A DNA stretch of 63,217 nucleotides, filler included. It is 8 parts of 8 records of this genome, joined end to end, with 100 filler letters (N's around TTAATTAATTAA, not from the genome) between each part and the next. Parts side by side here need not be neighbours in the genome. Positions count along the whole stretch, not along the records: positions 1 to 5,937 come from SRR7504441_1204; 7 more parts are not named here. The stretch is one strand, 5' to 3'. Under the pieces are notes generated by a model that was not told the origin of the DNA, searched no databases, and was given only the letters and a program-made list of their open reading frames with translations. Below are positions 1,772-46,053 of the stretch, piece after piece. The translations under genes were made by a program, and so were the position numbers. Numbering within the stretch: position 1 is the first letter of the stretch; every line of letters begins with the position of its first letter.

Positions 1772-4181
1772 ATGCTATCTGTCTGCCGGCGGGGGGCGCG
1801 TTCGGTGCTCAGCGCCGTCCCGGCAGGGCTCCCATCAGACCGGAGGGAGCGGCGCGGCCCTCCCCGCCGCTGGATCCGCAACCCGGGGGCCGCCTTCGCC
1901 GGTCCAGCTACCGCCGGGCCTGAAGCGGTGTCGGAGCGGCGCATCCTCGGGCGGCTGCTGCCCTACCTGTTCCCGGCGGACCGGCCGGAGCTGCGGGCGC
2001 GGGTGGTGGCGTCGATGGGGCTGCTGGTCGGGGCCAAGCTTCTAAACGTGCAGGTGCCGATCATCTTCAAGCACGCGGTCGATTCACTCTCGGACCCGTC
2101 GGCCTCTAGCTGCTACCTGGGGCTGATCGAGAACCCGGCCTTGCTCATGCTGGCCTACGGCACGGTCAGGGTCGGACAGGCGTGTGCCCGCCCGCCGGCC
2201 CGTGAGCGCGGGCGCAGGCCGTCTGCAACGAGGGACGGACCGCGGTGTTCGCCTCGGTGACCGAGCACGCCATCCGGCGGTTGTCCACGGAGGTGGGCCG
2301 GCCGGGGGGCGAGCTGAGCCCGGGCGGAGGTGTTCACGCACCTACATCGGCTGGATTTGAGCTTTCACCTCGGGCGGCAGACTGGAGCTGTCACCAGGTG
2401 CTGTCCCGCTGCACAGTCGCTGGTCAGTCGAAGGCAGGTGGGTGGATCGTGGCACCCAAGGAGTCAGCTTCGTGCTGAACGCGCTGGTGTTCAACATTGC
2501 ACCGATCGCGCTCGAAGTCGGGCTGGTGAGTGCGATCATGACATACACTTGCGGCCCGCAATACACGGCAGTCGCAGTAGCAACTGTGGCCGGATACTCA
2601 GCCTTCACCATATCAGTCACCCAGTGGCGGACCCAGTTCCGGAGGCAGATGAATCAGCACTCAAACTTGTCCTCCTCTTACTTGGTTGACTCTCTCGTAA
2701 ACTATGAGACGGTTCGTCTCCTCCGCTGGCCGGCCGCAGCCTCAGGCAGGTCAAGTACTTCTGCAACGAAAAGCTCGAGCACGACCGGTGCCCAGCCCAC
2801 CCGGCCCGGCCCGACCGGGAGCTGTCAGGTACGACCGGGAGCTCGAAAAGTACCAGCAGGCCGCTGTTCAGACCGCTACCACGCTCTCGATGCTCAACTT
2901 CGGCCAATCGGCCATTGTAAGCCTCGGGCTGGCCAGCTCAATGTACTTGGCGGCGGGGGACATCCAGGCCGGCCTGATGACAGTCGGCGACCTGGTGATG
3001 CTCAACGGGCTTCTTTTCCAGCTCTCGGTTCCGCTCGCAATGCTCGGCACTTCATACAGGCTGCTCCGCCAGTCCGTAGTGGACATGCAGAACCTATTTG
3101 GGCTTCTCGAGACCCAGCCGCAGGCAGCCCGGGCCGGCGCGCCAGCGAGCATTGGCTAGGTGCTGGACCTGCCGGACGCGCGCAAGCTGATCGTCTCCGC
3201 GCCGCCGGCAGTTGAATTCCGAGACGTCCACTTCGGATACACGTCCGACCGCCGGATTTTCAATGGCCTTAGCTTCGCAGTAGAGCCCGGACAGACAGTC
3301 GGCCTGGTCGGGCCGTCGGGAAGCGGCAAATCAACTGTGCTCCGGTTAATCTCTAGAATGTACCAGCCCAGCACCGGCGAGCTTCTTATAGACGGTGGCT
3401 CACTCGGCTGTCGAGTGGTTGTGACTGGGAGGCAGGCGAGCCGCTGTCGGAATTGGACAGTGACTCGGTGAGGCGGGCGATTGCGATGGTGCCGCAGGAC
3501 GTGGTATCGAGCATGGCTGTTGAGGTCACTGAGGAGGCGGGTGCAGGTCTTGTTCAACGATACTCTCAAGTACAATATCGCCTATGGGGACCCTCAGGCC
3601 TCACTGGAGCAGGTAGCTTTGGCGAGCGTGCACCGTTTCATGCCCTGCTCGCCAGATCATGGCAGCTGCGAGCGCTGCCCAACTCGACGGCACAATCACC
3701 AGCTTGGAGCATGGGCTAGACACGATGGTGACTGCTGTTGGGTCTCGCTGATGCCATTGCGTCAGGTGGGCGAGCGCGGTCTCAAGCTTTCTGGTGGCGA
3801 GAAGCAGCGGGTTGCTATTGCGCGGGCTGTGCTCAAGAACGGCCCGTTGCTGCTGCATGACGAGGCCACCTCGGCGCTGGACGGCGCGACGGTGGGCAGG
3901 CGGGGGGGCGTGTGTGACGTGGGGGGCAGGAGCGCGATGTGGCTAGTGCGCTGCACAGGATGGCGCACCATACTAGCTTGCTAGTGGCGCACAGGCTGAC
4001 CACCGTGATGGACGCCGATAAGATCCTGGTGCTCGGGAACGGTGGCTGGGTCCGGCTGGTTGGTGCGCTGAGCCTGTTGGCGGCAGGACGGGTGATCGAG
4101 GAGGGGCCGCACGCCGAGCTCTTGGCGATTCGAGGCGGAGTCTATGCTAACATGTGGGAAGAACGCAAGGACGAGCTCTAG
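1772..4181 (+). CDS. ATM1: Mitochondrial ABC half-transporter ATM1/ABCB7, 12 introns
   Basis: Arg-rich presequence; [28 protein letters not shown], Walker [30 protein letters not shown]. Introns 2180-2217 (GC), 2293-2329, 2398-2437, 2712-2749, 2788-2828, 3124-3159 (GC), 3395-3435, 3504-3546, 3613-3655, 3728-3765, 3892-3929 and 4042-4086 give one continuous frame. Confidence 0.93.
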
Positions 4182-4230: not shown

Positions 4231-4310
4231 GCTCGGCTTAGCTCGGCTTAGCTCGGTTGCACTCCTGTTTAAACCGGCGCGCCTTGCTGTTTAGGCCGGC
4301 GCGCCTTGCA
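4231..4310. repeat. Short tandem repeats in a convergent intergenic region
   Basis: GCTCGGCTTA x2 plus a partial third copy; CCGGCGCGCCTTGC x2. Confidence 0.7.
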
Positions 4311-4406: not shown

Positions 4407-5717
4407 TCAGTGCTTGAGCTCTAGCTCTCGGAGGCCAGCCACTGCTTCATTGCACAAGCCCAGTACTGATGTGAACCGGTCCTTATACACGATCAGCTTG
4501 TTTCTGTGCTCTTCATTCTCGGCCGCGACCTTCGTGTCGTGCTCGCGCTGCACTTCTACTCCCGTCTGCTCCTCCTCCCGCGTAGCGGCCTCTGCCGAGG
4601 CCTTTTGAGTGCGCTGGTCACTTGCCAGCGTCTGAGCGGCTCCGATCTCATTTGTTATTGCCGTGTTTGTAGCCTCCAGCTGGGCCACACCCACAGCCAG
4701 CAACCGCCGGGCCGGGGCGCTCATTGCCGCCCGAGCCGCATCGAGGTGCTGCTCTGCCTGTTGCTTCTCGGCCTGCATGCCAGAGACCTGACTGAGCTGC
4801 TGGTCCAGGCTCTCTTGGCCCGCCTGGATGCGAGCCTCCGCCTGCTTCCTCTCACGTGTGGCCGAGGCCGCCCGCTGCGCTGCCCGCTGGTGGGTAGAGA
4901 GCGCGGCCAGCTTCTGGTTCTGTTGCTCAGCCGCGCGCTCCTCCAGCTTGGCAAGCTCCTCCGCGCTATCTCCGTTTGACCGGGCCGCGCTCACCTCGCG
5001 CTGCGTCGCCGCCAGACTTTGTGAGGCCTGCTCGACCGGCTCCTGCGTCCCTGCCACCGCCCCGATCGCGGATTGCTCCGCTTGCTCCAGATTGGGCGCC
5101 TGGTCGCGCAGGGTCTGGATCCGGATCTGCAGCCGCTCGGCCGCCTCTTGTGCGGCCCGTAGACTCGTCTTGGCTGCCCCCAGCGCCAGGCTGGCTTGCT
5201 TGACCGCGTGCAGCTTGGGCTGGCAGGCGCCCATTTGATTGATAAACTCGGCGTGCATTTGGTCGACCTCCCGCTCGTGCTCTTGCTCCAGCCTGGCCAG
5301 CTCCTGATTGCAATGGGCCCGCAGCTCCGAGGTCTGGGCCCGCTGAGCATCGAGCTGGCTGTTGGCCGCATCCAGCTCCGACTTGGCCGCGGTTTGCTGG
5401 TCGGTTGCCGACTTGAGCTCGGCCTGGAGCCGTGCCTGCCGCTGCTGAAGTTCCGCTGCCCGGCTGGCAAATCTTCCTTCGGATCGACCATGCCTGTTCC
5501 AGTGATTCAAGGCTGCACGGCAATTGGTACCATATGCCCTTCTCAAGTCTGCATACTTGTTCAAGTAGTACTGGCAATCAAAGGTCGGGTGCCGCTCAGC
5601 GGTGGATTGGTCCGACTCCAGAGCTGCCGAGTGTCCCGCTTGAGCCTGAACCTCGAGCGCGACGGCGTGAGCCAGGACAATCAAGAGTCCTGCCGCCTGG
5701 ACGATCTTGAGCGCCAT
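4407..5717 (-). CDS. Secreted coiled-coil protein with an N-terminal FDxxYYL...HW..HG..EGR module
   Basis: Signal peptide MALKIVQAAGLLIVLAHAVA; FDCQYYLNKYADLRRAYG...ALNHWNRHGRSEGR; then ~350 aa of A/Q/E-rich heptads; no intron needed. Confidence 0.75.
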   Translation of the reverse strand: MALKIVQAAGLLIVLAHAVALEVQAQAGHSAALESDQSTAERHPTFDCQYYLNKYADLRRAYGTNCRAALNHWNRHGRSEGRFASRAAELQQRQARLQAELKSATDQQTAAKSELDAANSQLDAQRAQTSELRAHCNQELARLEQEHEREVDQMHAEFINQMGACQPKLHAVKQASLALGAAKTSLRAAQEAAERLQIRIQTLRDQAPNLEQAEQSAIGAVAGTQEPVEQASQSLAATQREVSAARSNGDSAEELAKLEERAAEQQNQKLAALSTHQRAAQRAASATRERKQAEARIQAGQESLDQQLSQVSGMQAEKQQAEQHLDAARAAMSAPARRLLAVGVAQLEATNTAITNEIGAAQTLASDQRTQKASAEAATREEEQTGVEVQREHDTKVAAENEEHRNKLIVYKDRFTSVLGLCNEAVAGLRELELKH

Positions 5718-5937: not shown

Positions 5938-6037
5938 NNNNNNNNNNNNNNNNNNNNNNNNNNNNNNNNNNNNNNNNNNNNTTAATTAATTAANNNNNNN
6001 NNNNNNNNNNNNNNNNNNNNNNNNNNNNNNNNNNNNN
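5938..6037. other. Artificial contig spacer (also 14139-14238, 25656-25755, 32513-32612, 41225-41324, 47510-47609, 59254-59353)
   Basis: Identical 100-nt N-run/TTAATTAATTAA/N-run linker with stops in all frames. Confidence 0.98.
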
Positions 6038-6818: not shown

Positions 6819-9800
6819 TTAGGTCGTTTTGGCTGTTGTGCCAATGATCAGCTCGCCGTTGGGATACATACAGCTTTGATACGCGTCGTGCACAGGCTGG
6901 TGGAGCCAGGCAGGGTCCAACTGATCATTAGGCCCCGACGCGTCCTCCATCCACAAGTCACACACGCAGCTGACCTAGCCAACATAGGTCAGAGCCAAGG
7001 CGGAAGCCACCATTGATGGTCGGAAGGTGAGCTCAAGCCACTGATGTCGCTCGACCGTGTTTGACACCACCGTGTGCTGTCCTTCATAGAAAGTGAACCC
7101 ACCACGGTACTTCAAGTCAATTCCAAGCAACTCTGTGAACGGATACAAAAACGCTGCCATCGTGCTTGACACTCCATGGCACTGACCCTGCCCCCGTGTC
7201 GCCAATTTTGCCACGTTGTCAGTGCGACCAACCCTACCGTGCACGACCCCTCTCCAACCCTTGAAACTTACAATGTCTAGACAGGCTCTCACAGCGTGCA
7301 CACACTGCTGTTGCAGCTCCAGGCAGCGGACTGGCTCCGCAAAGTCGAGTTTCTCAACAATTGGAGCCACCGCCAGCACAATTTGGTAAAGCTTAGCTTG
7401 GACGGCTAGGCTGCTGTAGTCGCACCAAACGCCATCCTCTAGTCGGACTCCACGGATAGGGTCTTGCTCGAATTCGTGCGGGTTATTCAACCGCTCCAAC
7501 TCGCTCATCAAAACTTGGACAGACTGGCTCTCGCCCAAATCCGTCTCCACCAAGACTGTGGCCATTTCGCCCTCACATTGGACAAACTCGGCACGATGAG
7601 TCACGAACAGCTCAGACTGAGCACTGGCATCTGCAGAGATCCGCATGTACCCTGGGTGAGTGACATTTGAGATCACCGGTGCCCGCACTAGCACCTGCCG
7701 ACCTTTATAAAAGCGCGGTGACTGCGCCATCATCTCCCAGTTGCGTGGCCCATTGAGCCACACCCCAAGCGCCAGCAGCTGCTGTGGATGAGCAACGGGA
7801 ATCTGGACCAGGGGAGGCAGACTGCCAAACAGCCGCACTGCCTCCGTGTGCAGCTCGTTGGAGCCGAGCAGCAGCGCCGCCTCAAGCAGCTGCTGCATCC
7901 TACCAGATGAGAACACGGCCCTGAAAGCCTCGACAGCAGCCGTCTGTTGACTGCCTTGCTGCAAAATCTGACGGGCCTGGCACAGGTCCAGCTTTCCATC
8001 GTCCACTGCTATCAGCGGTTGGAAAGACACCTGCCCGCCGTCACACCCTGCAGAGGGCGAGTCCAGGCCTGGTTGCCATACACGTCCTGTCCTGAAGCCT
8101 CGGGGAGCGGCCCGGCAGCAGCTTGCTGGTCTAGGAACGGATTCCTCCCAGTGAGAAACTCGAGCATGTGCCCAATCATTTGAGGCCTCACGCTCTTGCG
8201 GCTCTTCTTGGTGAACCCGCTCTTGATGAGCTTGATTGTGCCGTTAGGAATCGACTTTGCGAGTGGCTGCCACATGTTCCACGGATGAAATTGGTCCTCC
8301 TTTTGCCAAAGGACTAAGCTGGGCGCAACAAGCCGCCGTAGCTCGCCCTGCCGCCGCTCCTGCCAGGGCATTGAGGCCCACAAGCTTAGGCTAGGCGCCT
8401 GATAGCTGGCGTGGATGATCACCAAATATTCCACCACGGCCGGTGACCTGATCACGGCTGGTCAGGGCAAGGTGGAGCGCAGTTGAGACCTGAGGGCCAG
8501 CGAGATGGCAATTCCTGCGCCCCAATCTGAGCCAACCATTGTAGCATTGTGCACGCCCAGCGCCTCTAGCACAGCTGCTACTATATCCACCGCCCCACCC
8601 TTATCAAGATTGAACTCTGACCGCGCAGACTTGTGCTCGCCACCGTTGATCATGTGAACACCAGTGGAGAGCCCGCAGCCTGGCATATCTGGTGCCACCA
8701 CTGCGAAACCACTGGAGATTAGCGGACCGAAACACCAGCTGTACTCCTCCGAGCATGATGGGTACCCATGAAGGAACACGGCCACCGGTTGGTTGGCCAC
8801 GTCGCCGTACACGCGCACGGATAGAGTGCCGAGTGGAGTCTGCACCGGCCGCGGTCCTCCGAGCTCGTCTAGCTGAATTGACTCCCACGGCATGGTTCGG
8901 GGCTCGGACCTTGGATTGGGCTTAGGCTTTGGCCTGGTATTGGGCGGCAGCGTGGATCTAGGCTTGATCAGGTTCACAATCGGTTTGTTCTTGACGCTCG
9001 AGAAGCTCCTGGCAAAGCGGAGCGTGGCGATGGACTCGGATGCCGAGTCGAACGAAGATGACACGGTGGCAAGCAGCACGGTGCGACAGTTACCGCCGAG
9101 TGAGTTGGACAGCAGCCGAGTTAGCGTACAGTTGCGGTACGGAATATGCGATACGCGCTGTTTGCTCACCAACTTGGAGACCACTTCTGCCAGGAATTGG
9201 AGTGAAGAGTTGATTGCACATGCCTCGGCTGCCCGGTTACCAGTCGCGCCCGACCTCTTGATCCTCTCCGAGCCGGCCAGATCGACCAGGTGCAGCTGGG
9301 CCACTCGCCTGCTCTCGAGATTGCCGGTCTCGACAGTGAAGCTGGTGATCAGGTGAGACCGCGATGAGAGTTGGTTCATTTCCGTCGCGCCAGTTGCCCG
9401 CCTGCTGTACGCGCGACCCAGCAGCTCGGCCGCGTCGGCCGCCTCTCCGATCGGCTCTACGGAGGCGCCCTCAACGAACACCCCGCCGCCGGGGCTCTCT
9501 CGCAGCCGGACTGGCGGGGTTGTGGGGTGGAGCAAATCGGTGAGTTGCTCCCCGTACAGCTGCAGACAGGTCAGCTGGAGCAAATCGGCCGGCCCCAGCT
9601 GCCCGACCAGCTGATCCACCGCCCGCGGCACCACCCCACGGCCCGGACCGGACCAGTGCTCGCCCATGGTGTACGTCTTACCCGAGCCGGTCTGGCCGTA
9701 CGCGAATACAGTACCATTCACCCCGGCGGCGGCCGACTGGACCACCGGGTTGATGAGCTGGTATACCTCCTCCTGGGAGGCGGCGGGGCCGAGCACCCGG

Positions 9801-10051
9801 TCGAATCTGAACCCGGCCACGTCGGCGCTGTCGAGCGGCCGGTCTGAGTTGATCACCACCGGCTTGTCCGACTTGCTCACAAGCACGCACTGTTCGGCCA
9901 CCGCCACGCCCAGTCGGACCACGGCGCCCGGGAGCACCTCGCGCGGGAGCGGCGGGCGAACGCGCACGCCGACCAGGATCCCGGGCCGCTCCTGCAGCGA
10001 GGCAGTGGCCCCGGAGCAGTTGCTAAGCCCGAACTTACCCGCCCGCTCCAT
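6819..10051 (-). CDS. Kinesin motor + alpha/beta hydrolase + transglutaminase-like fusion
   Basis: Kinesin VRVRP, FAYGQTGSGKTYTM, NQLSSRSH, LVDLAGSE, HIPYR; hydrolase FLHGYP and GSDWG; C-terminal GQCHG/RHQWLE/VCDLW. Introns 8448-8489, 8360-8398 (putative, in frame), 8031-8068 (GC) and 6975-7010 join three ORFs; stop 6819-6821; start codon uncertain. Confidence 0.85.
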
Positions 10052-10229
10052 GGATCTCGCCGTTTTCAAGGGAGTTTCCACATTGGGGGATCGCTGGCCC
10101 GCTGGCCTTGGTCTACAATAGCTTGATTCAACTGCACAGACAGAGGTCAACTCCAAAGCGTATTTAACAAGTACCGGAGCGGTTCAAGCTTCAGCTTGTA
10201 GGCTGGTCTGGCTAGTCTTTACTCGAAGC

Positions 10230-11057
10230 TTAAAATCTAAAGCTAGCAGATCGGGAGTCCGGCGGGATGATCCGACCGGCCACGTTAGGAAATCGCTTGG
10301 GTATCCGAGCCCGGAGCTCCAGCGGATTGTCCGAAAGGTTAACAAACGACCCCACCGTCACTTGGTCAAAGCACTTGGGAAGCGAGACAAGCTGGTTATC
10401 CCACAGGCCCAAGTACCCTCCCACAACAATACGGCCAAACCTTGCCGGGAGCCCCCTCAGGCAATTGTGAGCGAGGTTGAGGTCCCCAGAGCACCGGAGA
10501 GTGCCAAACGACTCAGGCAGCTGCTCTAGGTGGAGTCTCGTCAGATTCCACCCTTGCAGAGTGCCGCCCCAGCTATATTCGGCTTCCTCGTGCCGCCCGT
10601 TGCCCTCTAGCCACGGGTTCAGCTCGACCAGATCGGCCCACAGCATCTTTACGGCCTCTTTGTGCCGGCCCTCCGCCCAGAAATACTCCAGCTGCTTCAG
10701 CCGCACCTCCGGCGCCGTGTCAGCCGGTGCCACCGCCCGCAGCTCGGCGCCCTGACCCCGGGCTCACCGCGGCCAGAGGCTCACACGCGCCTCGCAGACT
10801 CCGTGGTCGCACAGCCGGTGGTCAGGCGGCATCAGCACCTCGCTGAACCATATCTGGGTGCAGACAGCCACCGCCTCGGCCGCCTCCGAGGCCGGCCTGA
10901 GGGCGGCGATGGCCGCGCCGGCCAGTTGATTGAACCGGGCGTTGGCCGGCAGATAGAGCGGGGCGGTCTGGCCGTCCAGCACCACCTTCACCTCGATCGG
11001 AGCCCCGGCGTCCCCAGCCGCCGCGTCCGCCTGCTCTTCCGACATACCACAGCCCAT
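10230..11057 (-). CDS. Acylated ubiquitin-like + leucine-rich-repeat protein
   Basis: MGCGMS start; Ubl-like IEVKV...RLCDHGVCE/GAEL; LRRs LEQLPESFG, LAHNCLRGLP, LWDNQLVSLP; GC-AG intron 10752-10790. Confidence 0.7.
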
Positions 11058-11164: not shown

Positions 11165-12198
11165 ATGGAGGGCGGGGACCCTGTAGGGGACATCGTGGCG
11201 ATCCGGCAGCTGCAGGACGAGCTGCAAGCGCTGCGCCAGCAACGGCTGGACGAGGCCAGCGAGGGCTTCGGCGTGGCCGCCCAGGGGATGGATCCCGAGG
11301 CCGAGCTGCGCGCTGGGCGCGAGGGGCTAGAAATGCTCAGTTCCAAGTACAGCGCGGCCTGCAAGGCGGAGGACGAGCTCAAGGCACCCGCCTAGCGCCG
11401 GCTGCCCCGAGCCGGGCCCAGGGTGGGCTAGTGGATGTGCTCAGCAAGCAGGTCGAAGCGGAGGAGTCGGCGCTGAGCACCTGGACACACCAGTGCGAGA
11501 CGGTCGGACGGTGCCCGCCGGGCCGGGCCGGGCTGAGCCAGCGCAGCGCGTTCGACGGGTTTGAGGCCGTGCTCGAAGCGGCCTGGCAGAGCCACCTCGC
11601 CTCGCCTAGGAGCCCCGGGGCCAAAACGCTCTCCCCGACCGGCGACACCCCGACCGAGCGCGGGCCGCCGAGGGAGTCCAAACTCAACTTTGACAAGATC
11701 CGCAGCCGCCGGCGCCAGGCGGCCGGCTGGCTAGATCCGGGCTCAGCCTGGGTGCAGGCGAGGAGGCAAGTGAGCGATCAAATTGACAACAGCGAGCTGA
11801 TAGATTCGGCGTTCGCCAGGCTGCAGCAGAACGCGCACCAGGAGCAGTTCCAGGCCCGGATGCTCAAACTGGCGCTGGAGCACCTCACGCTGCCGTATTT
11901 TTACGATTTCGCGGCATATGGCGAGTGGAGATCTGAACGAGTCAAAGAGCAGGCCAAGAAGGTGGAGACCAACACTTCTAAACAGAAGGCCGCCCCGCCC
12001 AAGAAGAAGCCGGCGCGACCGGCCAGCCCGCCTAGTGGAGCGGCGGCCGAGGGGAGACAGACAGCTAGAACTTCACGAAAGCCTGCTGTGCCTAGTCAGA
12101 ACAACAAAGAGAATCGACGGGCACCGGCAGGCACGGCCGACAAACAGCGGCGGAGTACGAGCAAGGACCCACCGGCCTCCCGACCGACCTTCAAGTGA
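11165..12198 (+). CDS. Hypothetical coiled-coil protein with basic tail
   Basis: ATG 11165; GC-AG intron ~11384-11421 links two ORFs; head-to-head with the LRR gene. Confidence 0.55.
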
Positions 12199-14138: not shown

Positions 14139-14364
14139 NNNNNNNNNNNNNNNNNNNNNNNNNNNNNNNNNNNNNNNNNNNNTTAATTAATTAANNNNNN
14201 NNNNNNNNNNNNNNNNNNNNNNNNNNNNNNNNNNNNNNCACCTCCATCGGCGTGATCTCGGTCCTATCCGCCGCGAATTGCCTGGTTTATATCGTCATTG
14301 TCACACGTGGTCGTATTAATTACTATGTATACAACTCGTTCAGTCATGCGCAGAGGAACCTCAC

Positions 14365-15944
14365 TCAACGCCGGGTCAAGTCGTAGTTGAGGACTTCGGG
14401 AGGCAGCACCACTTGACTGGGCGCAATGTGTAAGTACAAGTCCCGAATGTTATGTATGTACTCCAGTTTCTTCCAGAACTTTTGGCTGATGAACGGCGAC
14501 ACAAACGTGATAGCAGCCCGGATCCAAAACGTCGGGTGAACAATGTACAAGGCCCTGCACCCGCCGGTCAGCGCCGCACGTTGGCCTGGCTCACTTGAGG
14601 TTTTTCTTGTATTTCCGGTTAAACACCTTGTACGCCGTGCGGAGAAACCCGAACGAAGGCCGCACGAACCGGCCTCGCGCACAGACCAGCACAAGAGAGT
14701 AGTCGCGGTCAGTCACAGGGTCCTGCAGCAGGCTGGGCGGGGGGCGGGCCGGGCGGGCACCATGGTGAGGATGAGGTAGAGCAGCAGCCGCTCGTAGTCG
14801 ACCTCCATTGTGGGTGTGATCAGCGTGACTACCATCCGCCCTTCCACATCCACGCCAGACTTGTACACTATATTGAGCGCTCGGATGTCTGACAGGTCCT
14901 GGCTGGTCGCCTGATTCAGGTACCACATGTAGGTCGACTCGGAGCTAATCGCGGCCGAGTTTTCCTCGATCCTATGCTGCCGGATCGCGTCCTGAGAGGC
15001 ACTCGACACTGTCATGTTTGCAAACTGCGCAATGTCGTCCTGGTTGGCGTCGGTTTGCTCGATCGCCTGCTCGCAGGTCTGCGGGCCGGTCCGCTCCTCC
15101 ACCGGCACCGAGAGCACGGAGTCGGCGATGCTCATTGCTCGCTCAGGGATAGTAGTCTCCCCAAACTCGTTTCCAGTGTCCTCGGGTAGGTTGGCGCACG
15201 CCCATTGCTCCTCAAGCACGTCGCGCGGGAAGTACATGGCTGCGATGCTCAGGTACATGTCCAGGTCGGCCTCCGAGCTGAACACGAACGCCACCGTTTC
15301 TATTGAGTCCATCCCAAACTTTTCAAGGAATCTCCTCACAGTTCGGAGAGCTATGTGGCAGCCGGCCTCGCGCGGATAGCCCTTCTCCTCGCTGTGCAGG
15401 CAGTCGAACGCGATGCTGTCCAGCTTATTCTCCATCAGAACCTCCAGGCACTGCCAGTAGGCCATGTGCAGCTGCCCGCCGGTCAGAGCCCGGGCCCGGC
15501 GGCCCGCACCGTGTTCTCAGCGGCGGTCTTGTACTTAACACTAAACCTCGGCCCCACAGTGTGCACCACCGCCTCCGCCGGGAGCAGCCCGGCCGCGGTG
15601 AGTTTCGCCTCGCCGGTTTTGACCCCTTCCAGCTGCTGGCAGGCCTGGTTCAGCTGCGGGCCGGCGTGCGAGAATATCTGGGCGGCCTGGGTGCTGTGCG
15701 GCCGGAGGTTCTCGCTGGTCGAGTTGACCACCGCGCCGCACTGCACCTCCCAGAGCGGGCCCTTCCAGAACCTGAGCTTCTCGTTGAGCACGCTGCTCAT
15801 CGGAAAGGGGGTGCTCGTCCGAGGGGCCGCCATGTGGGTGGTGGCCTCGGAGGTCAGGTGCGGAAGAGCCTCATAACTCGGGAGCTCCCCGATGCTTCGC
15901 CCAGCCAGCTTGGCGCCCGTGGCCGCCCCCGCCTCCTCCAGCAT
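14365..15944 (-). CDS. GDAP2: GDAP2-like macro domain + CRAL-TRIO/BCH protein, 3 introns
   Basis: Macro motifs AVVNS, TGEAKLT, VVHTVGP, YPRE...HIALRTVRRFL; LPEDTGNEFGE; RKYKKNLK-ALYIVHPTFW; introns of 38, 38 and 40 nt. Confidence 0.88.
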
Positions 15945-16099: not shown

Positions 16100-19000
16100 A
16101 TGTCGATGTTGCAGCAGCAGTTGGAGTTGGCCGGGGTGGCCCAGTACAGCGCTGGGCCGGTCAAGGCGGCCAAGTTCGGCGGCCGGGCCTCCTTCCTCTT
16201 CGATGGGGTCGCGGCGCTCGAGGTGCCGCGCCCGGCCGGGCCCGCCGCCCCAGCCGCCCGGCCAGGTGGACATGGCCACCGCGCACGAGATCGGGCGGAA
16301 CGGGATCGACGAGCTGATGGCCCAGGACGCGGACAGGTTTGGGCCGTTTGTCAAGCCGTTCTTCTCGGCGGGGGCCCGGGACAAGGACCGGACGCTGTGC
16401 ACGCAAGCCGAGAACGACCAGATCGACCAGCAGCTGGCCAAACTGCTCCGGGCGCTCTCGCCATACTTCCTGGCCCGACCCGCGCACAAGGTGTCGCCCC
16501 GGCCCGGCCCGGCGCCAGCAGGCTGTCAGGTACTCGAATGGCTTATCCGACGGTTTAGGATCCACGAGCTCAACCCGGGTGCCCAACGGCCCGGGCCCGG
16601 CCGGAGCGGGCAGCAGGCCCGGTGGTCGAGTGCATGCTGCCGTACCACCACACTCCACTGTTCGTGAAGATGTTGCAGCTGGTAGCTCCGGCGCTTCGCA
16701 GGACTGCGGCCGGCAAGCCGTGGCAATGGCTGGCCGCGGTCGCCAAATCCGGCGAGCCGTTCGGGCGGGAGCTGCTGGTCCGGCGGTGCGCCAAGGACGC
16801 CTCGCTGCTGGCGCTGCTCTGCCGGCTGGGCACCCAAGAGCCGTCGGCTGGCCGGAAGCCGGGCTACACCGAGTTGTTTGCAGTGGTGGCAGTGGAGACG
16901 ATACGGGCCAGCGAGCACCTGAGCCCGACTATGGTGGACACGCTCAAGAAGGCGGTGCTCCGGGGGCTCGAGAGCAAGGCGGGCGAGCCGCTCCGTCTGG
17001 CCGCGAGCATGGTGTTGGCCGAGCTGGCCGGGCGTGTCAAGCTAGAATCGGAAGCGCTCGCGCTGCTGCTCGAGGCCGTTGCCAAGGGCGGCGGCCCGCG
17101 CTTCCCCACCAAGAGCACCGTCGAATGTGAGCGCCCGCCGACCTGGGTCTGAGTAGGCCGCAGGTCTGGCGCTGCTGGTCAACTCACAGGATCTGGAAAG
17201 CTTGCCGCAGCGGTGCGTTCAGCACTTGGTCCGACTGCCGGTGAGCCTGGCCCTCCGCTGGAGCTGACTGGCCGGGGCAGGACCTGACGGCGGTGGTGGC
17301 CCAGCTGACCGACCAGTGCTCTGCTGAGCCGTTTGTGGCCGTGTACGTGGCTTGTCTCATGCAGAACGCTCTCGTGCACAAGAATTATCTGCAGCTGCTC
17401 GAGGAAGCGCTCACCGGACTGCCGGTGCGCGACTTGCTCCCCAAGCTGCTCCAGCCGCACCTCGGTCGGTTTCTGGCCCCTCCAGAGGTGCAGCGCAGCT
17501 GTGTTCGCGCGAGCCTTGGGCAGGGCGAGGACAACCAGAGGGAGCTCGTGCAGCTGATCCTCCAGCGCTGTGGCCAGCGGTTTGGCCCGCAGGTGGACGC
17601 CGCGCTGCAGGCTGCGCTCAAGCGGCACTCGTCGAAGGCACGCCGGGCTGCGGCCCTCCTGGTGATTGGGTGTGCAGGCCCAGCGCAAGCAGTTGGTTGG
17701 CTTGCTTGAGGCCACGTGGGAGGGCACGCGCAAGCTGGAGCACTCGGTGCTGGCCTGTCCGACCAGTGCAGGTGAGCGGGCCATCGTTGGCTGCTTGCTC
17801 ACTGCTAGCGCAGGCGGTGGGAGCACTACACTCTACCTGGCCTTGGAGCACCCTGCGGCTGCGGTTCGAATCGCAGCCATGACCTGTGTCGTGGACGGGG
17901 TGAGCGGCCCTGGTGAGCCTGGAGCGCTCGGGCACGGGCTGAGTGCTGTGTCAGATGGGGCTGATGTGGACACAGTGTCTGGTTCGCTGGTTGAGAGCTT
18001 CAGCCAGAGGCTTGAAGACGACGAGCAGCAAGTGGTGCTGGCAGCGCTCTCACAGCCCAAGCTGTTGCTCCGCGCCGAGCTGAGCAGCCTCGAAGCCAAG
18101 CTGACCAAGCTCGCCAGTCGCTCTGATGCTGCGAGGGATCCAAACGGCAAGTGTGCGGCCAAGGCCGTTTCCGTGCTGGCGCGGCATGTCTTGCCGCTTG
18201 GACAGAGCCAAGACAGGTTGCCCGCGGTGGTCAGCGCTGTCATACGTGGCATGATGCCGAGAGACGGCAACCTGGCGACTGCACTGCGCGTGATGAGGCA
18301 GGCTGCTGAACTCAAGGAGCACTGCCCCGTGTTTGGGCCGCTGAACGATCTGCACGCCATGCTAACAGACCAGCAGGCAGACACAGGCAAAGCCAGCTCT
18401 GACAAGTCAGCGAAGAAGAACAAGCGTAAAAAGGCAGGACAAACCTCGGAGGTATCAGCTTTGAGCCTCAAGAGCTTCATTGTCGGACTTGCCCAGGCCA
18501 TTGGTGAGTGGCCACGGTTGATTTCTGTGAGCTCTGAGCTGGTGATTGGCGCAGGTGAGGGCTCTGCGGACGAGATTGAGCGACTTGCTCTTTACAAGGA
18601 ATTTAAGGGGTTGGATGACCAGCATGCCAGCTTTGTGCTGATGCTTGCGCTAGCTTCTGCAGCCAAGCAAGGGCCCGAACGTGCTGCCGAGGCAGGCCTG
18701 ATGCTCCATTATGAGCTCACAGCTGCCGCCAGCCAAGCCAAGTGGCCATCGATGCCGGCTGACAAGTCCGAGGAAGATGCTCTTTGGGATCTGCTGCCAT
18801 CCATGCTCCAGGGAGAGCTGGCGCCAAGGCTTGCAATTGCCATCAGCTTGGTGCCTGAGGTGCTGGAAAATCTGGAGCGCACAGTTGAAGATAAGTTGCT
18901 GCAACATATGATGCAGCACTTCCCTGCGACTCCTGGGCACACTGCTCTAGTCTCTGGAGACATAGCTCTCTATCCTGAGCCAGCTCCAGAGGCACAGTGC

Positions 19001-22000
19001 TTAGCAGCTGTGACTGGAACTTACTTAGCTCTTTCATACGTTCCAGACATGCAGCTCGTGGAAGCTCAGCTGCAGGCAGTCTTCAGGTGCTTCAACGGCT
19101 CAGCATCTGCACTGCGCTTTCTAGCCCCATTCTGGTTGGCATCACCTAACAACGCAAGTACCGGCCTGCAGGTGCGCTCGCTTCAGCTAGCAGCATGTGT
19201 GCTCAAGTCTGCTTCTGATGCCACTAAAGCGGCAGCATTCGCTTCCTTGCTACCTCCCTTAGCATCTGAGCACAAACAAGTCAGGCTGGCGGCAGTTGAG
19301 TGTATCAAGCTTGCTGCAGCCTCAGCTCAGTCAAAAGACACGAGTGAGCCACCATTTGTCATGCTGCGATGCTCCGGTTCGGACAAATGGGAACCCAGCC
19401 ACGCCACAAAGGCAGAGACCAAGCAAATAAGCAAATTTGCAGCAGCTGCTGCTGCCTCTATTGTCTTGGAGGACTCAGCTGTCCTTTCACGCATATTCTG
19501 CATGGACAGCAAGACGACTGCAGCAGCACTACCCCTGCTGCTCTCTCATGTGGTTACCTCGGGTGGAGCACCCGCACTGCTGTGCTTGTTAAATGCCGCA
19601 AAGAGCGTGGAGTGTCCTGCTAAAGTCGCGTTTGCTCAGACTGGCATGGTCTCACATGACGATCCGCTTGCAGAGAGCATCTTGGACGAGGCGCTATCAG
19701 GAGTAGTGCCCCATGCAATCTGGGCTGAGGACTCTGGGCTGTTTGAAGCCCTGCTTGGGATTATCACAGCCAAGACAGCCAGTGCAACGAGTGCAGCCAA
19801 GGCAGTGCAGCACCTCAACTCCGCATTTTACCTTGAGCTTCCCTCGCCCTCACGAAGCTCAAACCAGCGGGAGCAGCTGTTTGGCATGCTGTGTGATGCA
19901 ATTCATGCTGGTGTCAGTGGTGCTGCAGCTCAACTTGCCACATTGCCAATCGAGGCAAACCTCATGGTTGAGGCACTTGGAAGTGGGCCTCTGCAGCCTG
20001 GAGACATTAAAGATGTCCCAGCAACATGCAGTGCTCTCGCTCAAGCATTGCCAGTGGTCGAACTGGCGGCTGATACCCAAAGCGAACTCCAGGACCGTGC
20101 TGAGCTATGCAGCCCACTTTTGAATCTTCTGAAGATTCTTAGTGACAGCCGAGTTGCTGCAGAATTCCACTCAAGCGAGTATATGAAACAAATGGTCTTC
20201 AATGCACTGCTTGCGTCAACGTCCGATTCCACGCTCACACCTAAGCAAATTGCAGAATTCGACATCCAGAGCATCATTGAGTGTGCACGAGGCGGCTCAG
20301 GCCCAACACGCTCGCATGCCCTGCTTCTGCTTTCTCAACTTGCATCACAGCATGGGCTGCAAATTGTCAAGCAAGCCATGCCACTCTTTACATTGAGCCT
20401 TGAGAGTGGCGATTCTGCATTCACATACACAGTCCTACACAAGGCATTGGCTGCAATTGCTCCGGCAGCTTCTGAGGCGAGTGGATCAAGTGTCGAACAA
20501 GTTGTAGATCTGTTTCTTGCATCACTAGCATCGGTGAGCACTGTATGGCTTTATAGTCCTGACTTGTGCTGCAAGGTGCCATCACATCGACGGATTGGCC
20601 TGCTACAATCTCTTGTGAAAGCACTTGGTACTTCAACTGCTCTCGAATTGACAGTTTCAAAGCTAGTGGCTGGTCATGAAGCTGCTGAGACAGTTGCCGA
20701 GCCACTTCTGTTGGCTTTCACAGCGGAAGAGCAGGTGGCTCTGCTAACCTGATGTGTCAAACCCTAACCCTGTTGCACCAGGTGGAGGCTCTTACTCATA
20801 TGCTGAGCCGGGTGGCCTCCAAAATAACCAGTGAGTTAGCAGATGAGACCAGGAAACACATTTCAGGGCTATTGCTCTTTGTGGCCGACCATGTGGCTTC
20901 GTCGTCGTTCATTATGTCCGAAGGTATGGGAACAGAATGTGCTGCGTTTGCAGGCCGGGCAATGGAGCTTGCTCAAGTCGCTTCCAAGGCTCGCCAGCCA
21001 GGTCCAGTATCAGACAAACACCAAAAGCGCGTGGCAAAATTCTGGAAAAGTGTCAAGAAGGCCGCACTCAAGATTTTGGGACAGCTCAATTCGCTGATTT
21101 CAGCCCAAACCTTTGTTGATGTCACATCCAAACTCTTGCAACACCACGACTCATTAATCCAACGGCATGCCCTCAATAGCTTCATTGAACGGATTGGTGA
21201 CACCAAGGATACTATGTCACCCCACGAGAAGAAGCTGTTTGTATCTAAACTCGACGACCTTCGTGAACTCTTCAAGAAGCCGCCAGCAGGAGCTTCAGAA
21301 GCTGTGAAGACTGAGGCCATCACCAACTGCCAGACAGCCTTGTGGACCATGGAGGTGCTGGCACAGAATTTCGGAGCCAGCGAGCCCGAATCCTTTCAGC
21401 CTTGCGTGGCCGACGTTATTTCATTCATTGAGGAAAGCAATGTCAGTACAAGCACTGCAATGCTATGCCTTGCTCAACTAGTGGCTGCATTGGGAGTGCG
21501 GATGCTGATGCACCTACCACATCTCATGCCACTTCTGCTCACAAGGCTGGGCGAGGCTGTCGAGCAGCAAGCCGCCTTGGTTGCCCAGGCGGCGCTGCGC
21601 TGTCTTGCAGCTATCCTCGAGCACCTTAAGGATTTCCTACAGAAGTATCTTCCTGAGGTGCTCAACTGTGTGCTTCACAGGAACTTATCTGATCCGGCGC
21701 CCCAAATGGCCAATCCTGCCTTGCGAGAGCAGATAACACTAACCCGAGCTGCACTTTCAGCGCACCTTCCGCCAACCCATCTTCTCTGTGCTGTGATTGG
21801 ACACTACAGGGCCGCAATTGAGGGTGGGTGTGTCCCAGCACTAATGGAACTAGTCCGAGGCGCGGTTGGTAAAATGAACGACAATGAGGTCAAAGACTTT
21901 CATAAGCGCCTGTTCAAGTTCTTGCTCGTTGTATTCGACTTTCGGCGGGAGCAACTGAAGGCTTCAACTGCTGAAGCGGTGATTAGCGAATCAGAGGCAG

Positions 22001-25655: not shown

Positions 25656-26271
25656 NNNNNNNNNNNNNNNNNNNNNNNNNNNNNNNNNNNNNNNNNNNNT
25701 TAATTAATTAANNNNNNNNNNNNNNNNNNNNNNNNNNNNNNNNNNNNNNNNNNNNTCAAGCACCCTCGACAGCGCGCACTACGCTGACCGGGTGGATGGC
25801 AACTGCTGCTACTGTGGCGCTTGTCTCTCTTATGCTGGCAGTGCCTCCGGCTCTGGCTCCGGCATGTAGCTACTGACCACTAACGGTAGAAATGGACGGT
25901 GAGACTGGACGGTGAGCACCGGGATACCCCCCCGCTACTGGACGAGCTCATCTAGACGACCCAGAGGAAGGGCTAGAACATTGAAGATGTCGACCATGAT
26001 CATGGCTATCACGTTTATGCGGATTATGAAATAAACTCAATTTATTCATTAGTACTTGGACAGTCTAAATAATTATTTCATGAGCACTGTGTGTACGGAT
26101 AATGCGTCATTATTGGTTATTTTGCCAATCTCCATATGATTGATATCAAGCTTATAATTGACTTGTGAATATGAATTAATGTACATTGAACGGTCGAGTC
26201 CCCAAGTCTGCGTTAGAAGGAGTAAGAAGGAGCTGAAGCAATAGCAGCATACGGCCTCGAGCTGGCCTTCT

Positions 26272-32512: not shown

Positions 32513-32612
32513 NNNNNNNNNNNNNNNNNNNNNNNNNNNNNNNNNNNNNNNNNNNNTTAATTAATTAANNNNNNNNNNNNNNNNNNNNNNNNNNNNNNNN
32601 NNNNNNNNNNNN

Positions 32613-35348
32613 AGCTTTGATGCAGGAGCTTGAGGCAGCTGAACTGCGGGACCAGATCCAGGCAGCCGAGCAAGAGCAGAGTGCTGGCGGGGCTAAGTCT
32701 GAAGAGGTCGAAGAGGCGAACCAAGCTCTGCAGCAGGAGATCGAGGGATTGCAGCAGCAAGTATCGGATCTGCGAAGCAAGAATGACTCGTTCGAGGAAG
32801 ATGCGTCTCAGGCGCGGACTGAGCTTGCTTCAGCCATGCAGGAAGTGGCCAAGACACACGAAGAGCTCAAACAATTGCAAGCCGAAGCCGACCAGCTGCG
32901 TGAGAACCAGGAGAACGAGGCGCCAGTGGAGATTGAGACTTCTCACCTCGCACCAGAGGTCAAGCTCCTGCAGCAGAAGAACAACCAATTGCTTGCTAAG
33001 CGGAAGAAGCAGGAAGAAACCATCTGCTCGCTGCGCAAGCAACTCAAAGAGCTCAAACAAGGCTCGAACGCCGGTGCTGTGGAGGACGTGACTGCGCTCA
33101 CCACCCAAGTCGATCAACTGCGTGAGAAGCTGAACGCTGCCGAAATCGAGATCCAGAAGAAGCAGGCCGCCATGGACGTGCCCCAGAGCCCTTGCATCGA
33201 CGTGCGTGCACTCACTCGTCTGCAAAGCGAGCTCGAGGAGGCCAGCCATGAGATTGAATGTCGCGATTCCACAATTGCACTGCTTGAGCAAAAGGTTGCT
33301 GAGGCTGAGGAACTGTGCGGATCGCACCAGCTCGCCGCGGAGGCAAGTGCAGAGGAGCTTGCATCTATGAAAGACGAATCGGTTGAACTGCAGGATCAGC
33401 TCCGTGCTGCCCAAGAAAGGCTCGAGGGCTTCGAAAACACGCAAGAGGATCTTGCAGAGACTCTCGTGCGGATTAGCGAGAAGGAAGCAAGGCTTGACAA
33501 GGCCAGCAAGCAAATGGAGGGTGATATCGCAAAGCTGCGGGCCGAGAACAATATGATTACCTCTCAGAGTGCCAACAACCAGAACGACCTGGAGAAGGCG
33601 CAGGACTTGGCATCAGAGTGGAAGGACAACGGAGAGACCTGGCGACAGCGGTGCACTACTCTCGAGGCCCAATTCAACATGCTCCAAGAGACTGCCGAGG
33701 CTGATAAGAAGAACTACAAAGAAACGTTCGACCGCACTCTTCAGCTGCAGGAAGAGAAGTGTCAGGTGGCAATGGAGCTCCAGACCAAGGCCCAGGAGGC
33801 ACTGCTTGCTGAGCAGCGCAATGCAACTCTTGAGGAGCAACTCACAGCAGTGCAGCAGCAGGTGACTGATAAAGAAGTGGAACTGCGAGTGGCTCTGTCC
33901 AAGCTCGAGGAGACCAGTGCTGCTCTGAACAGTGCAGAGGAAGAGCTTGCAGCAGCTAGGGCGACCAACAAGGAGTTGGCGGAGGAGAAGCTGACCGCAC
34001 TCGAGGCAGACTTGGAGCGCACACTCGGGGAGAAGCAGTCTCTGGAGCAGCAAGTTGAGAGGCTTGAGGCTGAAGTGTCCGTGCTGCAGTCTGACTTGCA
34101 GAGTGAGAAGAACCATGCTGCCAAGCAGGAGCTGGAGCTGCTCAATGCTGCCGGCCAGATGCAAGAGCAGAGCGAGTCTGAGCGCAATCAACTCATGGCT
34201 GAACTGCAGGCTGCTCAGGAGAAGACGTCTGAGGAGCAAGAGCGGGCCATCGAGGAGGCTAAGGTGCAGACCAAGCTCGAATGCGAACTCAAAGAAACAA
34301 AGGCTCTGCTCCAGGCGGCTCAGGGTCAACACCAGGACTCTAGTGCCACCATCGATCAGCAGAAGGCGGCTCTCGAGGAGCTTCAGAGCCAAGGAGGCGA
34401 GCTGGGCGCCAAGCTGAAGGAGCAGAGCTGCAAGAACCAGCAGCTCCGGGCCGCATTGTCATCGACTCAGGATGAGCTGGCAGAGCTGAACGCCTCTTCC
34501 ACTGCTACAGCGTTCAAGATGAGCAAACAGGTATCCGAATTGCAGGCTTCGTTGCACAAGAGCTCGCAAGAGAACGCGGCGCTCCATGACCATCTGGAGC
34601 AGACCCAAGGGGAAGTGCAGGCGCTCAAATCCGACAAGCACCGCTTGCTCCAAGTAGAGGAGCAACTTGTGCTGAAGGCGGACAAATTGACTAGGGATGG
34701 TGAGGAGACACAGGCCAAGACAGAGGACGAGGCTCACATGGCCGGTGTGAACCTCAAGCGGATGCAAGGGCAGCTGCGCGATTTCAAAAAGGACAAGGAG
34801 CAGATGCAGCAGGAGATCGACGAGCTCAAAGCGAAGCTTGCGGAGGCCAATGTGCAGCAGAAGGTCAACCCAGTTCGCGCTCTGATGGGCAACGCAGTGG
34901 AGTCTGAGAAAGAAATGACAAAGGACCAGATGCGTAAGCTCAAGGAGGAGCTCGAGACGACGACCATGCAGCTGACTTCTGAGACCAACAAGCGGTTGGG
35001 GCTGGAGCGTGAGGTCGCCAAGCTCAAAAAGGTAGACCAACTCGATAGCTGATCCGTCTGAGCAGGTTTGTCAGGTGGGAGGTGTTGGTCGGCGGCGTGG
35101 TGCTGTGCTCGACCCCGTGCCTACGAATTGTCCGGAGAACGAGTCAAATAGTGAGGAGGCTTTGGAGGGTATGCAGCCGGTGCCGGTGCGGAGGTCTTTG
35201 CGGAATGCCAAAAAGATGGCTGCAGTTGGTGGACAGGCCCCAGCAGCTGAGGTGACCCCCCCGCAAGTTCCTGTGTGTGAGATTGTGCGTGCTGACATTA
35301 CAGGCTGCTGTGGCAAATGGCGAGGGAGAGAATTGCAAGCAGCAATGA
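32613..35348 (+). CDS. Long coiled-coil protein, 5'-partial, ending in CaaX-like CKQQ
   Basis: >800 aa of heptads; introns 35032-35074 and 35252-35303 give ...GEGENCKQQ*. Confidence 0.8.
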
Positions 35349-41224: not shown

Positions 41225-41324
41225 NNNNNNNNNNNNNNNNNNNNNNNNNNNNNNNNNNNNNNNNNNNNTTAATTAATTAANNNNNNNNNNNNNNNNNNNN
41301 NNNNNNNNNNNNNNNNNNNNNNNN

Positions 41325-45400: not shown

Positions 45401-46053
45401 TCATATCGCACAAAGAGTTGCTCGAGCACGGTTCTGACCTCACACGGCACCGGTCCTGGGGACACAGCCGAGTTCCCGTTGCTCATGCTGCACCGACTCG
45501 ATGACCAGCTGGTTGCTTCGGCCAATCAGGTGCCTAACTGCGCCTGAACAGACGCTCAGTTGGCTGGGGGTCCCGGGGCAGGGGTGGGATTGCCAGACGA
45601 CCCAGCGCGCCTTCGTGCGATACTCGCGGCGGTGGGGCAGGGGAGGTGTGCCGGCGCCAGCCCGCCAGCCGGGGGATGCGGACCTAGTACAAGATAAGGG
45701 GGGGGAGGGTCACCAAACACGCCTGCGCCGTCATCAATCTATCAACGGATCTGACGACTCCGAGATGGCAAGAAAGATGATAGACTAGATTGAATACAAC
45801 AATATCTAGAAATTGAATACTCGACGTACAATGCCGGTCATGCAGTAATGTTTGCCCGAATGGAATCAACCGATCGATATCAAATTATCAACCGATAATA
45901 CGAGTGTAGTTTGAGGTTTTCATTCTTGAAAAGAGGTATTATGTAATAATGTTGAGATGTTGATGCGCCACGGTGGATCTCGTGAGGAGTAAACAACCCG
46001 AGAATTGCTTGAGGGAGCATGCACGTGTACCAGCTACAAGTCACACAAGATGC

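Follow-up and report, generated by a model that had tools for sequence, protein, structure and literature searches.

Short, G-rich introns without a pyrimidine tract supported by protein homology in six genes of a GC-rich protist

The gene for an ATM1/ABCB7-type mitochondrial ABC transporter, located at positions 1772 to 4181 (+) of a 63,217-base window, is interrupted by twelve segments of 36-45 nt, and the locus raises the question of whether these segments are introns and, if they are, by which signals introns so short, rich in G and devoid of a pyrimidine tract would be recognized. The window, i.e., the whole stretch of DNA that was analyzed, is not a single locus and consists of eight contigs of 3.9-11.6 kb joined by seven spacers; its host is a GC-rich, locally intron-dense protist. 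The initial annotation of this sequence had placed twelve introns in ATM1, reported dozens of similar size in other genes, and proposed a divergence of the splicing machinery itself. In the present analysis, a total of 32 introns in six genes on contigs 1, 3, 5, 7, and 8 are supported by homology, and with a probability of roughly 0.85 we regard them as genuine U2-type (major) spliceosomal introns, the length of which (about 36-49 nt) lies near the lower size limit of this spliceosome.

Introns of ATM1 and of five further genes

Intron borders in ATM1 were determined using a purpose-written protein-to-genome spliced aligner and a set of ABCB7/ATM1 homologues retrieved with one exon as the query, the main run taking 40 homologues that were 600 residues or longer and allowing no intron below 30 nt. 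All twelve introns were recovered at exactly the coordinates of the initial annotation, each by 31-40 of the 40 homologues, and in a run with eight homologues each of the ten GT-AG introns was recovered in at least seven. The named homologues among the matches listed are from animals. The resulting gene has 13 exons between the ATG at 1772 and the stop codon at 4179-4181, and its spliced coding sequence of 1932 nt is open and encodes a complete ABCB7/ATM1 protein (an ABC half-transporter) with the Pfam domains ABC_membrane and ABC_tran; its G+C content at third codon positions (GC3) is 0.79.

The ten GT-AG introns of ATM1, all on the + strand, are intron 2 (2293-2329, 37 nt; 40/40 homologues), intron 3 (2398-2437, 40 nt; 40/40), intron 4 (2712-2749, 38 nt; 38/40), intron 5 (2788-2828, 41 nt; 38/40), intron 7 (3395-3435, 41 nt; 40/40), intron 8 (3504-3546, 43 nt; 40/40), intron 9 (3613-3655, 43 nt; 35/40), intron 10 (3728-3765, 38 nt; 37/40), intron 11 (3892-3929, 38 nt, with 66% G; 39/40), and intron 12 (4042-4086, 45 nt; 35/40), which is in frame and stop-free and is drawn from the homologue gap alone. 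The remaining two are GC-AG introns. Intron 1 (2180-2217, +, 38 nt, phase 0) was recovered by 32/40 homologues, while 7/40 picked a GC variant at 2186-2217; the sole GT-AG alternative, 2184-2206, is 23 nt long, leaves five additional residues, and was picked by 2/8 homologues when introns of at least 20 nt were permitted. On the alignments, the GC donor at 2180 is thus favoured. Intron 6 (3124-3159, +, 36 nt; 31/40) is in frame and contains a TAG stop codon; no GT occurs within 3080-3159, and all alternatives picked by the aligner have a GC donor as well. Since the stop codon lies in frame and no GT is in reach, the GC donor at 3124 is forced.

Outside ATM1, 20 supported introns of 37-63 nt were found in nagB, UTP10, and a DMFA2-like, a GDAP2-like, and a MutL-homologue gene. 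The dozens claimed for other genes are reached only by counting 15 additional introns that were called by a gene finder driven by a position weight matrix (PWM) alone. Because the PWM was trained on ATM1, the argument from it would be circular, and these 15 are kept apart as predictions. The borders of 28 of the 32 supported introns, in four genes, come from the spliced aligner, and those of the other four from PDB residue numbering, a Pfam profile, or motif continuity. The statistics given below were computed on 31 of the 32 introns or on the first 28, as stated for each figure.

In UTP10/HEATR1 (contig 3; 16100-22863, +), five GT-AG introns on the + strand were recovered at 16223-16265 (43 nt; 10/14 homologues), 16491-16529 (39 nt; 13/14), 16579-16616 (38 nt; 13/14), 17127-17163 (37 nt; 12/14), and 17241-17280 (40 nt; 10/14). 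A sixth, 17638-17677 (+, 40 nt), is a frame-shifting GC-AG intron that had been absent from the initial annotation. It was resolved by 1/14 homologues, namely the closest one, P0241 (45% identical), with a gap-free HSSK|AQRK alignment over the junction, and the PWM-driven gene finder concurs; because excision corrects a frameshift with exact continuity, the GC donor is forced here too. Three in-frame candidates in the same gene, at 17488-17523 or 17503-17529, at 17766-17813, and at 17913-17954, gave alignment scores of 867, 872, and 856, which do not separate an intron from an insertion, and they are omitted from every count. The distribution along this gene is uneven. The first 1.6 kb holds the six supported and up to three possible introns, and the 16-18 kb window has 68% G+C; the remaining 5 kb has 48-57% G+C and at most one predicted intron (20735-20781). 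In two long intron-free frames of the window, an anoctamin (44031-45482) and a coiled-coil protein (32614-35052), GC3 is lower too.

The nagB gene on contig 5 (39804-40786, -) is of the short type of about 250 residues, and all of the listed matches that name an organism are bacterial. Each of its five introns, on the - strand, was recovered by 12/12 homologues: a GC-AG intron of 48 nt at 40607-40654, and GT-AG introns at 40512-40555 (44 nt), 40393-40436 (44 nt), 40261-40309 (49 nt), and 40134-40196 (63 nt). When no terminal dinucleotides were imposed, the same borders were returned in 3/4, 3/4, and 4/4 cases for the second, third, and fifth introns, respectively. The first intron is in frame and stop-free, and from the sequence alone it could in principle be kept as 16 extra residues. 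The fifth is likewise in frame and stop-free, and in the translation its excision joins IGIGE directly to the downstream residues.

The DMFA2-like gene on contig 7 (56883-59180, -) has largely bacterial matches among those listed; the few eukaryotes named there include Emiliania huxleyi and Diplonema. Its five GT-AG introns, all on the - strand, are 58127-58168 (42 nt, in frame; 10/12 homologues), 57999-58040 (42 nt; 10/12), 57844-57881 (38 nt; 12/12), 57768-57805 (38 nt; 12/12), and 57634-57671 (38 nt; 12/12); the second and third were returned with exact borders in 3/3 cases in the dinucleotide-free mode. An exon of 38 nt (57806-57843, -) sits between two of these homology-supported introns. 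An even shorter exon of 22 nt (54661-54682, +) occurs in a model that comes from the gene finder only.

Four GT-AG introns on the - strand have other kinds of support. In the GDAP2-like gene (Macro + CRAL-TRIO), intron 15472-15509 (38 nt, 3' end CTGACCGGCGGGCAG) is flanked by an upstream exon that aligns with the structure 4uml_A to residue 144, one residue before the exon ends, and by a downstream exon whose second residue is where the alignment resumes, at residue 147, so the residue numbering is continuous over the junction. The Pfam profile CRAL_TRIO_2 covers positions 30-75 up to the end of the exon upstream of intron 14555-14594 (40 nt, 3' end CTGACCGGCGGGTGCAG) and resumes with positions 74-135 in the downstream exon, in another frame; this intron was also called by the gene finder. 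For intron 14723-14760 (38 nt, PWM 13.7), which the gene finder predicts and for which support is weaker than for the others, profile position 30 begins at the downstream exon. In the MutL homologue (contig 8), excision of the in-frame intron 62847-62888 (42 nt, PWM 11.7) closes a 13-residue gap relative to E. coli MutL (1b63_A) and gives SVTDNGCGIRMADL (DNGCGI).

The terminal dinucleotides provide an independent check, as the borders were set by homology. All 32 supported introns are GY-AG (28 GT-AG and 4 GC-AG). With the dinucleotide rule switched off, a segment of the same length was removed at most 9 nt away in 33/36 cells in ATM1, 15/15 in the DMFA2-like gene, and 10/18 in UTP10. Of the 20 combinations of homologue and intron in nagB, 10 gave exactly the GY-AG intron, 7 had the same length 1-3 nt away, 2 lay further off or had another length, and 1 was missing, and there were three extra calls downstream. 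From dinucleotide counts, the chance of GY..AG at a random pair of positions is only about 0.01, and about 0.2 within ±9 nt, so that chance falls far short of explaining its presence at all supported introns. Moreover, the length is not a multiple of three in 21/28 introns, and excision is therefore needed to maintain the frame.

Intron anatomy and splice signals

The introns have a median length of 40 nt, with 28/31 measuring 36-45 nt, and conform to the consensus (31 introns) G|GTG ... A at -17 to -11, often within CTGAC, ... GGCAG|G(T). Between the donor and this adenosine lies an A-poor, G+C-rich stretch of about 20 nt; in roughly half of the introns the adenosine is part of CTGAC, CTGAG, or GTGAC, and a short spacer rich in G separates it from the 3' end. 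Their composition (31 introns) is 11.6% A, 32% C, 40% G, and 16% T, compared to 21% A, 28.5% C, 30% G, and 21% T in exons of the same genes, which corresponds to a G+C content of 72% in introns vs. 59% in exons. We also observed (CCCGG)n-like runs in the introns at 2180, 2293, 2788, 3124, 16223, 16491, 16579, 14760, 15509, and 62888, and relative to the whole window the 28 introns show a 9- to 10-fold excess of the hexamers GGCCCG, GCCCGG, and CCGGCC. This enrichment may stem from slippage, from a common origin, or from a motif bound by a protein. Structured or end-paired introns were considered as an explanation and rejected, the mean folding z-score over 28 introns being -0.19 relative to shuffled sequences.

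For the signal statistics, a control set of 1490 exonic GY..AG pseudo-introns was used. At the 5' side, the last exon base is G in 28/31 introns (93% of the first 28 vs. 27% of controls, p = 9e-13), and position +3 is G in 22/31 (68% of the first 28 vs. 24% of controls). Positions +4 to +6 are nearly uninformative (0.03-0.31 bits, 31 introns), and G at +5 is not enriched (9/28 vs. 28% of controls). The initial annotation had stated that the donors share little beyond GT or GC, which is accurate for +4 to +6 and misses the G at -1 and at +3.

At the 3' side, position -3 is C in 27/31 introns (86% of the first 28 vs. 37% of controls), and the terminus GCAG is found in 20/31 (17/28, or 61%, of the first 28 vs. 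16% of controls, p = 1e-7). The first base of the downstream exon is G in 26/31 (86% of the first 28 vs. 22% of controls), and this exon begins with GT in 13/28 (46%) vs. 4% of controls. An adenosine is present at -17 to -11 in 28/28 introns, and the motif [CG]TGA[CG] occurs at -26 to -8 in 12/28 (43%) vs. 8% of controls (p = 8e-7), so the described arrangement of a (C/G)TGA(C/G) element followed by GCAG is borne out by frequencies above those of exonic controls for both parts. A tail resembling CTGACCGGCGGGCAG recurs among the predicted introns. The region from -18 to -4 contains no pyrimidine tract: it is 45.6% pyrimidine and 17% T (31 introns), and pyrimidine runs of at least five were seen in 1/28 introns. 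Instead, as the initial annotation had described, this region is rich in G (42%), with peaks at -11 (18/28) and at -5 and -4 (18 and 19/28), and GGG is present anywhere in the intron in 20/28 (71%) vs. 37% of controls. None of the 28 introns has a GTRAGT donor.

The suggestion that introns are here defined by length, branch point, and an exonic AG|G is consistent with the narrow length range and the adenosine found in 28/28 introns; the exonic signal is G|G, as A is present at position -2 of the upstream exon in just 13/28. When the terminal dinucleotides are set aside, introns scored by leave-one-out reach only about 8.5 bits of signal at the median. A scan of the window by PWM, tried as an intron caller, returned 116 of 78,690 GY..AG candidates with scores of 8 or above and cannot list introns from the signal alone. 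Motifs at a median of about 8.5 bits thus under-specify the introns, and length and context must contribute. A gene finder based on codon usage only was also tried and did not discriminate, with 16 calls for GT-AG and 6-18 for 15 decoy dinucleotides.

GC-AG introns account for 4/31 (13%; 95% interval 3.6-30%), at 2180, 3124, 17638, and 40654. Among the seven GC donors listed initially, the three at 2180, 3124, and in nagB (40654) are supported by homology. Two others are predicted: 8031-8068 (-, 38 nt), called by the gene finder in a kinesin/hydrolase gene, has the top PWM score (6.2) of the 60 GY..AG pairs that would keep the frame, 11 of them starting with GT, and 10752-10790 (-, 39 nt, phase 0), also called by the gene finder, has an in-frame stop and a PWM score of 12.5. 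The donors at 24217 and 60780 found no homology support; they score -6.9 and -4.0, respectively, and lie in AT-richer surroundings. Further GC-AG candidates of 38-41 nt with PWM scores of 9.0-11.7 and no homology support are 62642-62679 (-), 11384-11421 (+), and 54799-54839 (+); PDB searches for the first of these, which lies in the MutL homologue, used two further MutL segments and returned no matches. The most likely source of both the G+C richness of the introns and the GC donors is mutational GC pressure on the genome rather than a changed spliceosome.

Nature of the introns and competing explanations

If these are U2-type introns of near-minimal size, the whole intron would be recognized as a single unit (intron definition); exon definition would be hard with exons of 22-38 nt. 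U1 would pair with G|GUG only, U2 with a canonical CUGAC-type branch site, and the 3' AG could be picked through a branch distance of 11-17 nt, helped by the C at -3 and the G at +1. As no pyrimidine tract is involved, the large U2AF subunit may be either unnecessary or replaced by another factor, a situation known from short introns in humans, and the G-runs together with the drop in A (12% vs. 21% in exons) may help to mark the intron. A broader version would make the G-rich, tract-free unit of about 40 nt the genome-wide default of this lineage, with the 3' site read without pyrimidine-binding U2AF65, through branch-AG distance, GCAG|G, and perhaps G-run proteins, such that a pathway rare in humans would be the main one here; intron gain would be ongoing and would include genes of apparent bacterial ancestry. 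We consider this broader version tentative and rather unlikely to hold in full.

The proposal of altered machinery, in which the 5' splice-site pairing of U1 and U6 has changed and U2AF65 has been lost or retargeted to G-rich RNA, would lead one to expect changed ACUUACCUG or ACAGAGA boxes or the absence of U2AF65. The uninformative donor positions +4 to +6 and the lack of GTRAGT donors agree with it, as do the preference for G at -4, -5, and -11 in place of a pyrimidine tract and a signal content too low to specify the introns. However, weak donors are usual among intron-rich genomes, G at -1, G at +1, U at +2, and G at +3 still permit four to five pairs with an ordinary U1 5' end, and CTGAC is canonical with respect to the U2 branch consensus yUnAy / CURAY. 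The window also offers no gene for inspection: no Rfam family, including small nuclear RNAs (snRNAs), was found in it either at the gathering score or at E ≤ 0.5, and the Pfam scan of its frames contained no splicing-factor domain, U2AF included. In the portions of the cited papers on which we draw here and below, the frequent GC donors of GC-rich algae are reported with no appeal to altered snRNAs (PMC4028052; bioRxiv 10.1101/2024.10.30.620910), and ultra-short introns that are rich in G and have weak sites are spliced by human cells (PMC4463651). The step from these introns to divergent U1, U6, or U2AF, which the initial annotation had taken, is therefore not supported, and we judge altered machinery to be improbable.

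A recent spread of introner-like mobile elements, or tandem duplication at AG|GT sites, would explain why the segments are so uniform in size and why they have G|GT...AG|GT flanks. The proto-splice-like junctions (G at exon position -1 in 93%, downstream GT in 46% vs. 4%) fit this view, and so do the 9- to 10-fold enriched hexamers with the (CCCGG)n-like runs in several introns, and the five introns each in nagB and in the DMFA2-like gene, whose listed named homologues are mostly bacterial. These two genes suggest intron gain after gene acquisition. On the other hand, intron ends and flanking exons share 5.0/15 identities, which equals the 5.0 obtained for mismatched pairs, and on this sample the tandem-duplication origin was rejected. 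The 28 introns show no excess structure or paired termini (mean z -0.19, as above), and beyond the GC-rich hexamers no shared family sequence was apparent when they were read side by side, a reading made without an all-against-all comparison. A length of 38-45 nt leaves scant room for a transposon, although 63 kb is too small to exclude a family. We therefore regard mobile or duplicated introns as a very doubtful source.

The weakest alternative, that the segments are lineage-specific coding insertions or assembly and sequencing indels, might draw on the fragmentary assembly with its short contigs, on the 8/32 segments that are multiples of three (at least three of them stop-free), and on the failure of the codon-usage-only gene finder to separate GT-AG from decoys, but it has almost no likelihood left, given that GY-AG occurs exactly where homology demands it, that lengths cluster at 36-45 nt, and that positional signals depart from the controls at p = 1e-6 to 1e-13, none of which random indels would produce; for the 21 frame-shifting introns and for 3124 with its in-frame stop it is excluded. 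The minor (U12-type) class, with the consensus donor RTATCCTT and branch site TCCTTAAC, was likewise rejected, no RTATCCTT start having been found on reading the 28 introns; the nearest is GTATCGAG at 3504.

Several points weigh against reading the segments as U2-type introns of near-minimal size. Every junction is drawn from protein homology, and for the introns that are multiples of three (7/28 and the MutL intron 62888) retention as a coding insertion is possible in principle; there are no in-frame stops in 4042, 40654, and 40196, and 16491 and 58168 apparently lie inside open frames as read. A motif of the T-N-A type is missing at -30 to -7 in 10/28 introns, and the branch point is a motif call rather than a mapped lariat. 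The sample amounts to 32 introns in six genes, which leaves the rate of GC donors loose. The origin of the eight contigs from a single organism is assumed, the shared intron type backing five of them only. Finally, analogy is the basis for all parts of the proposed mechanism: intron definition, splicing that does not depend on the large U2AF subunit, and a contribution of G-runs.

Gene content and comparison with known systems

The contigs are joined at 5938-6037, 14139-14238, 25656-25755, 32513-32612, 41225-41324, 47510-47609, and 59254-59353 by spacers of 44 N, TTAATTAATTAA, and 44 N, the TTAATTAATTAA-containing spacer acting as a stop in six frames, and gene order across these points is therefore not inferable. 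The G+C content varies from 47 to 68% across 2-kb windows. When the 504 stop-to-stop frames of at least 60 residues were all scanned against Pfam, eukaryotic genes were identified, including ATM1/ABCB7, kinesin, Macro + CRAL-TRIO (GDAP2-like), UTP10/HEATR1, NagB, anoctamin, PIP5K, and MutL among others; no tRNA gene was found in the window.

A single open frame at 8465-10183 (-) encodes a kinesin motor at residues 101-395 and, after it, an alpha/beta-hydrolase fold at residues 461-566, and the gene-finder model extends this frame to about 6819 through three predicted introns, adding 340 residues without a Pfam match. This model represents either an unusual kinesin-hydrolase fusion or two genes merged in reading. 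In the model at 50184-52985 (+), a PIP5K catalytic domain is preceded by about 510 residues in the gene-finder model that appear by eye to be hydrophobic and multi-pass; receptor-PIP kinase fusions occur in oomycetes and Dictyostelium, and the model resembles them. Between the ATM1 stop codon and a convergent gene at 4407-5717, the 22-nt unit CTGTTTAAACCGGCGCGCCTTG is present as two tandem copies (91% match) at 4265-4309, which may be a 3'-end or terminator element.

If the six genes are representative, the organism would be a natural system in which near-minimal, G-rich, tract-free introns are the rule, and it would be useful for studying the choice of the 3' splice site without tract binding of the U2AF65 type, the minimum length of U2-type introns in a GC-rich setting, and the reshaping of splice signals by GC pressure, such as the change of donors from GT to GC and of +3 from A to G. 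In such genomes, annotation with standard gene finders, which are built around GTRAGT donors, pyrimidine tracts, and a lower intron length of about 50 nt, would go wrong and yield fused frames or truncated proteins, a risk that is relevant for environmental eukaryotic assemblies like the present one.

The closest parallel in intron anatomy is found in humans. Human introns of 37-65 nt are G-rich and have weak sites, and some known introns of the U2 type can do without the pyrimidine tract (Shimada et al., 2015, PMC4463651), so its absence here does not exclude membership in that type; short introns that depend on SPF45/RBM17 (bioRxiv 10.1101/784868; PMC8363638) belong with this parallel. The introns described here share with the human ultra-short introns (PMC4463651) the length range, G as the commonest base, frequent G-triplets (GGG in 20/28 here), and 3' signals that are weak or absent. 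They differ in that the human ones are rare (22 screened, 15 with splicing evidence, PMC4463651), whereas here this is the sole class seen (32/32), and in that branch-site scores are close to zero for many of the human ones (PMC4463651), whereas about half of those described here have a CTGAC-type motif at a fixed distance.

With respect to GC donors, the parallel lies with GC-rich algae. GC donors make up 56-65% in Emiliania huxleyi (PMC4028052) and 14-17% in the pelagophytes Aureococcus and Pelagomonas (bioRxiv 10.1101/2024.10.30.620910), and in both cases the authors ascribe them to GC content. Similarly, the window combines a GC-rich genome and retained AG acceptors with GC donors at a frequency well beyond the 0.3-2% that is quoted for animals and plants, and the rate of 4/31 (13%) matches that of the pelagophytes. 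Unlike the pelagophyte introns, which have mean lengths of 103-177 bp and number less than one per gene, those in the window are about 40 nt long and number up to 12 in a gene of 2.4 kb.

Many small introns per gene are also a feature of the BOC1 region of Mamiellales (Bathycoccus, Ostreococcus, Micromonas), a low-GC region with AT-rich introns of 40-65 bp that reportedly has no conserved branch or splice motifs (PMC3491373). BOC1 is one low-GC chromosome region, whereas the introns described here have 72% G+C and clear signals at -1 (G), +3 (G), CTGAC, and GCAG, and are spread over at least five contigs. The identity with BOC1 introns is ruled out by the difference in composition. The tiny introns of ciliates, nucleomorphs, and gregarines resemble those of the window in having narrow lengths near the lower limit and canonical termini, but the best described ones are shorter (15-30 nt); ciliate and nucleomorph tiny introns are AT-rich. 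Among gregarines, the length modes are 28 bp in Porospora and 37 bp in Gregarina niphandrodes, and in Porospora a conserved A lies just 6 nt from the acceptor (PMC9250747), compared with 11-17 nt here. The non-conventional introns of euglenids and diplonemids have variable non-GT-AG borders and base pairing that joins their ends (PMC12621601, PMC11170887); they are ruled out by the GY-AG borders of all introns and the mean folding z of -0.19.

We found no system in the literature in which G-rich, tract-free introns of about 40 nt with about 13% GC donors form the sole class, nor a paper that presents G-rich introns of this length as the default of a genome; as the search left most subscription journals outside, such a description may already be in print. 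Each trait by itself has been published, be it frequent GC donors, ultra-short introns rich in G, or introns of about 40 nt, and it is their combination that is uncommon.

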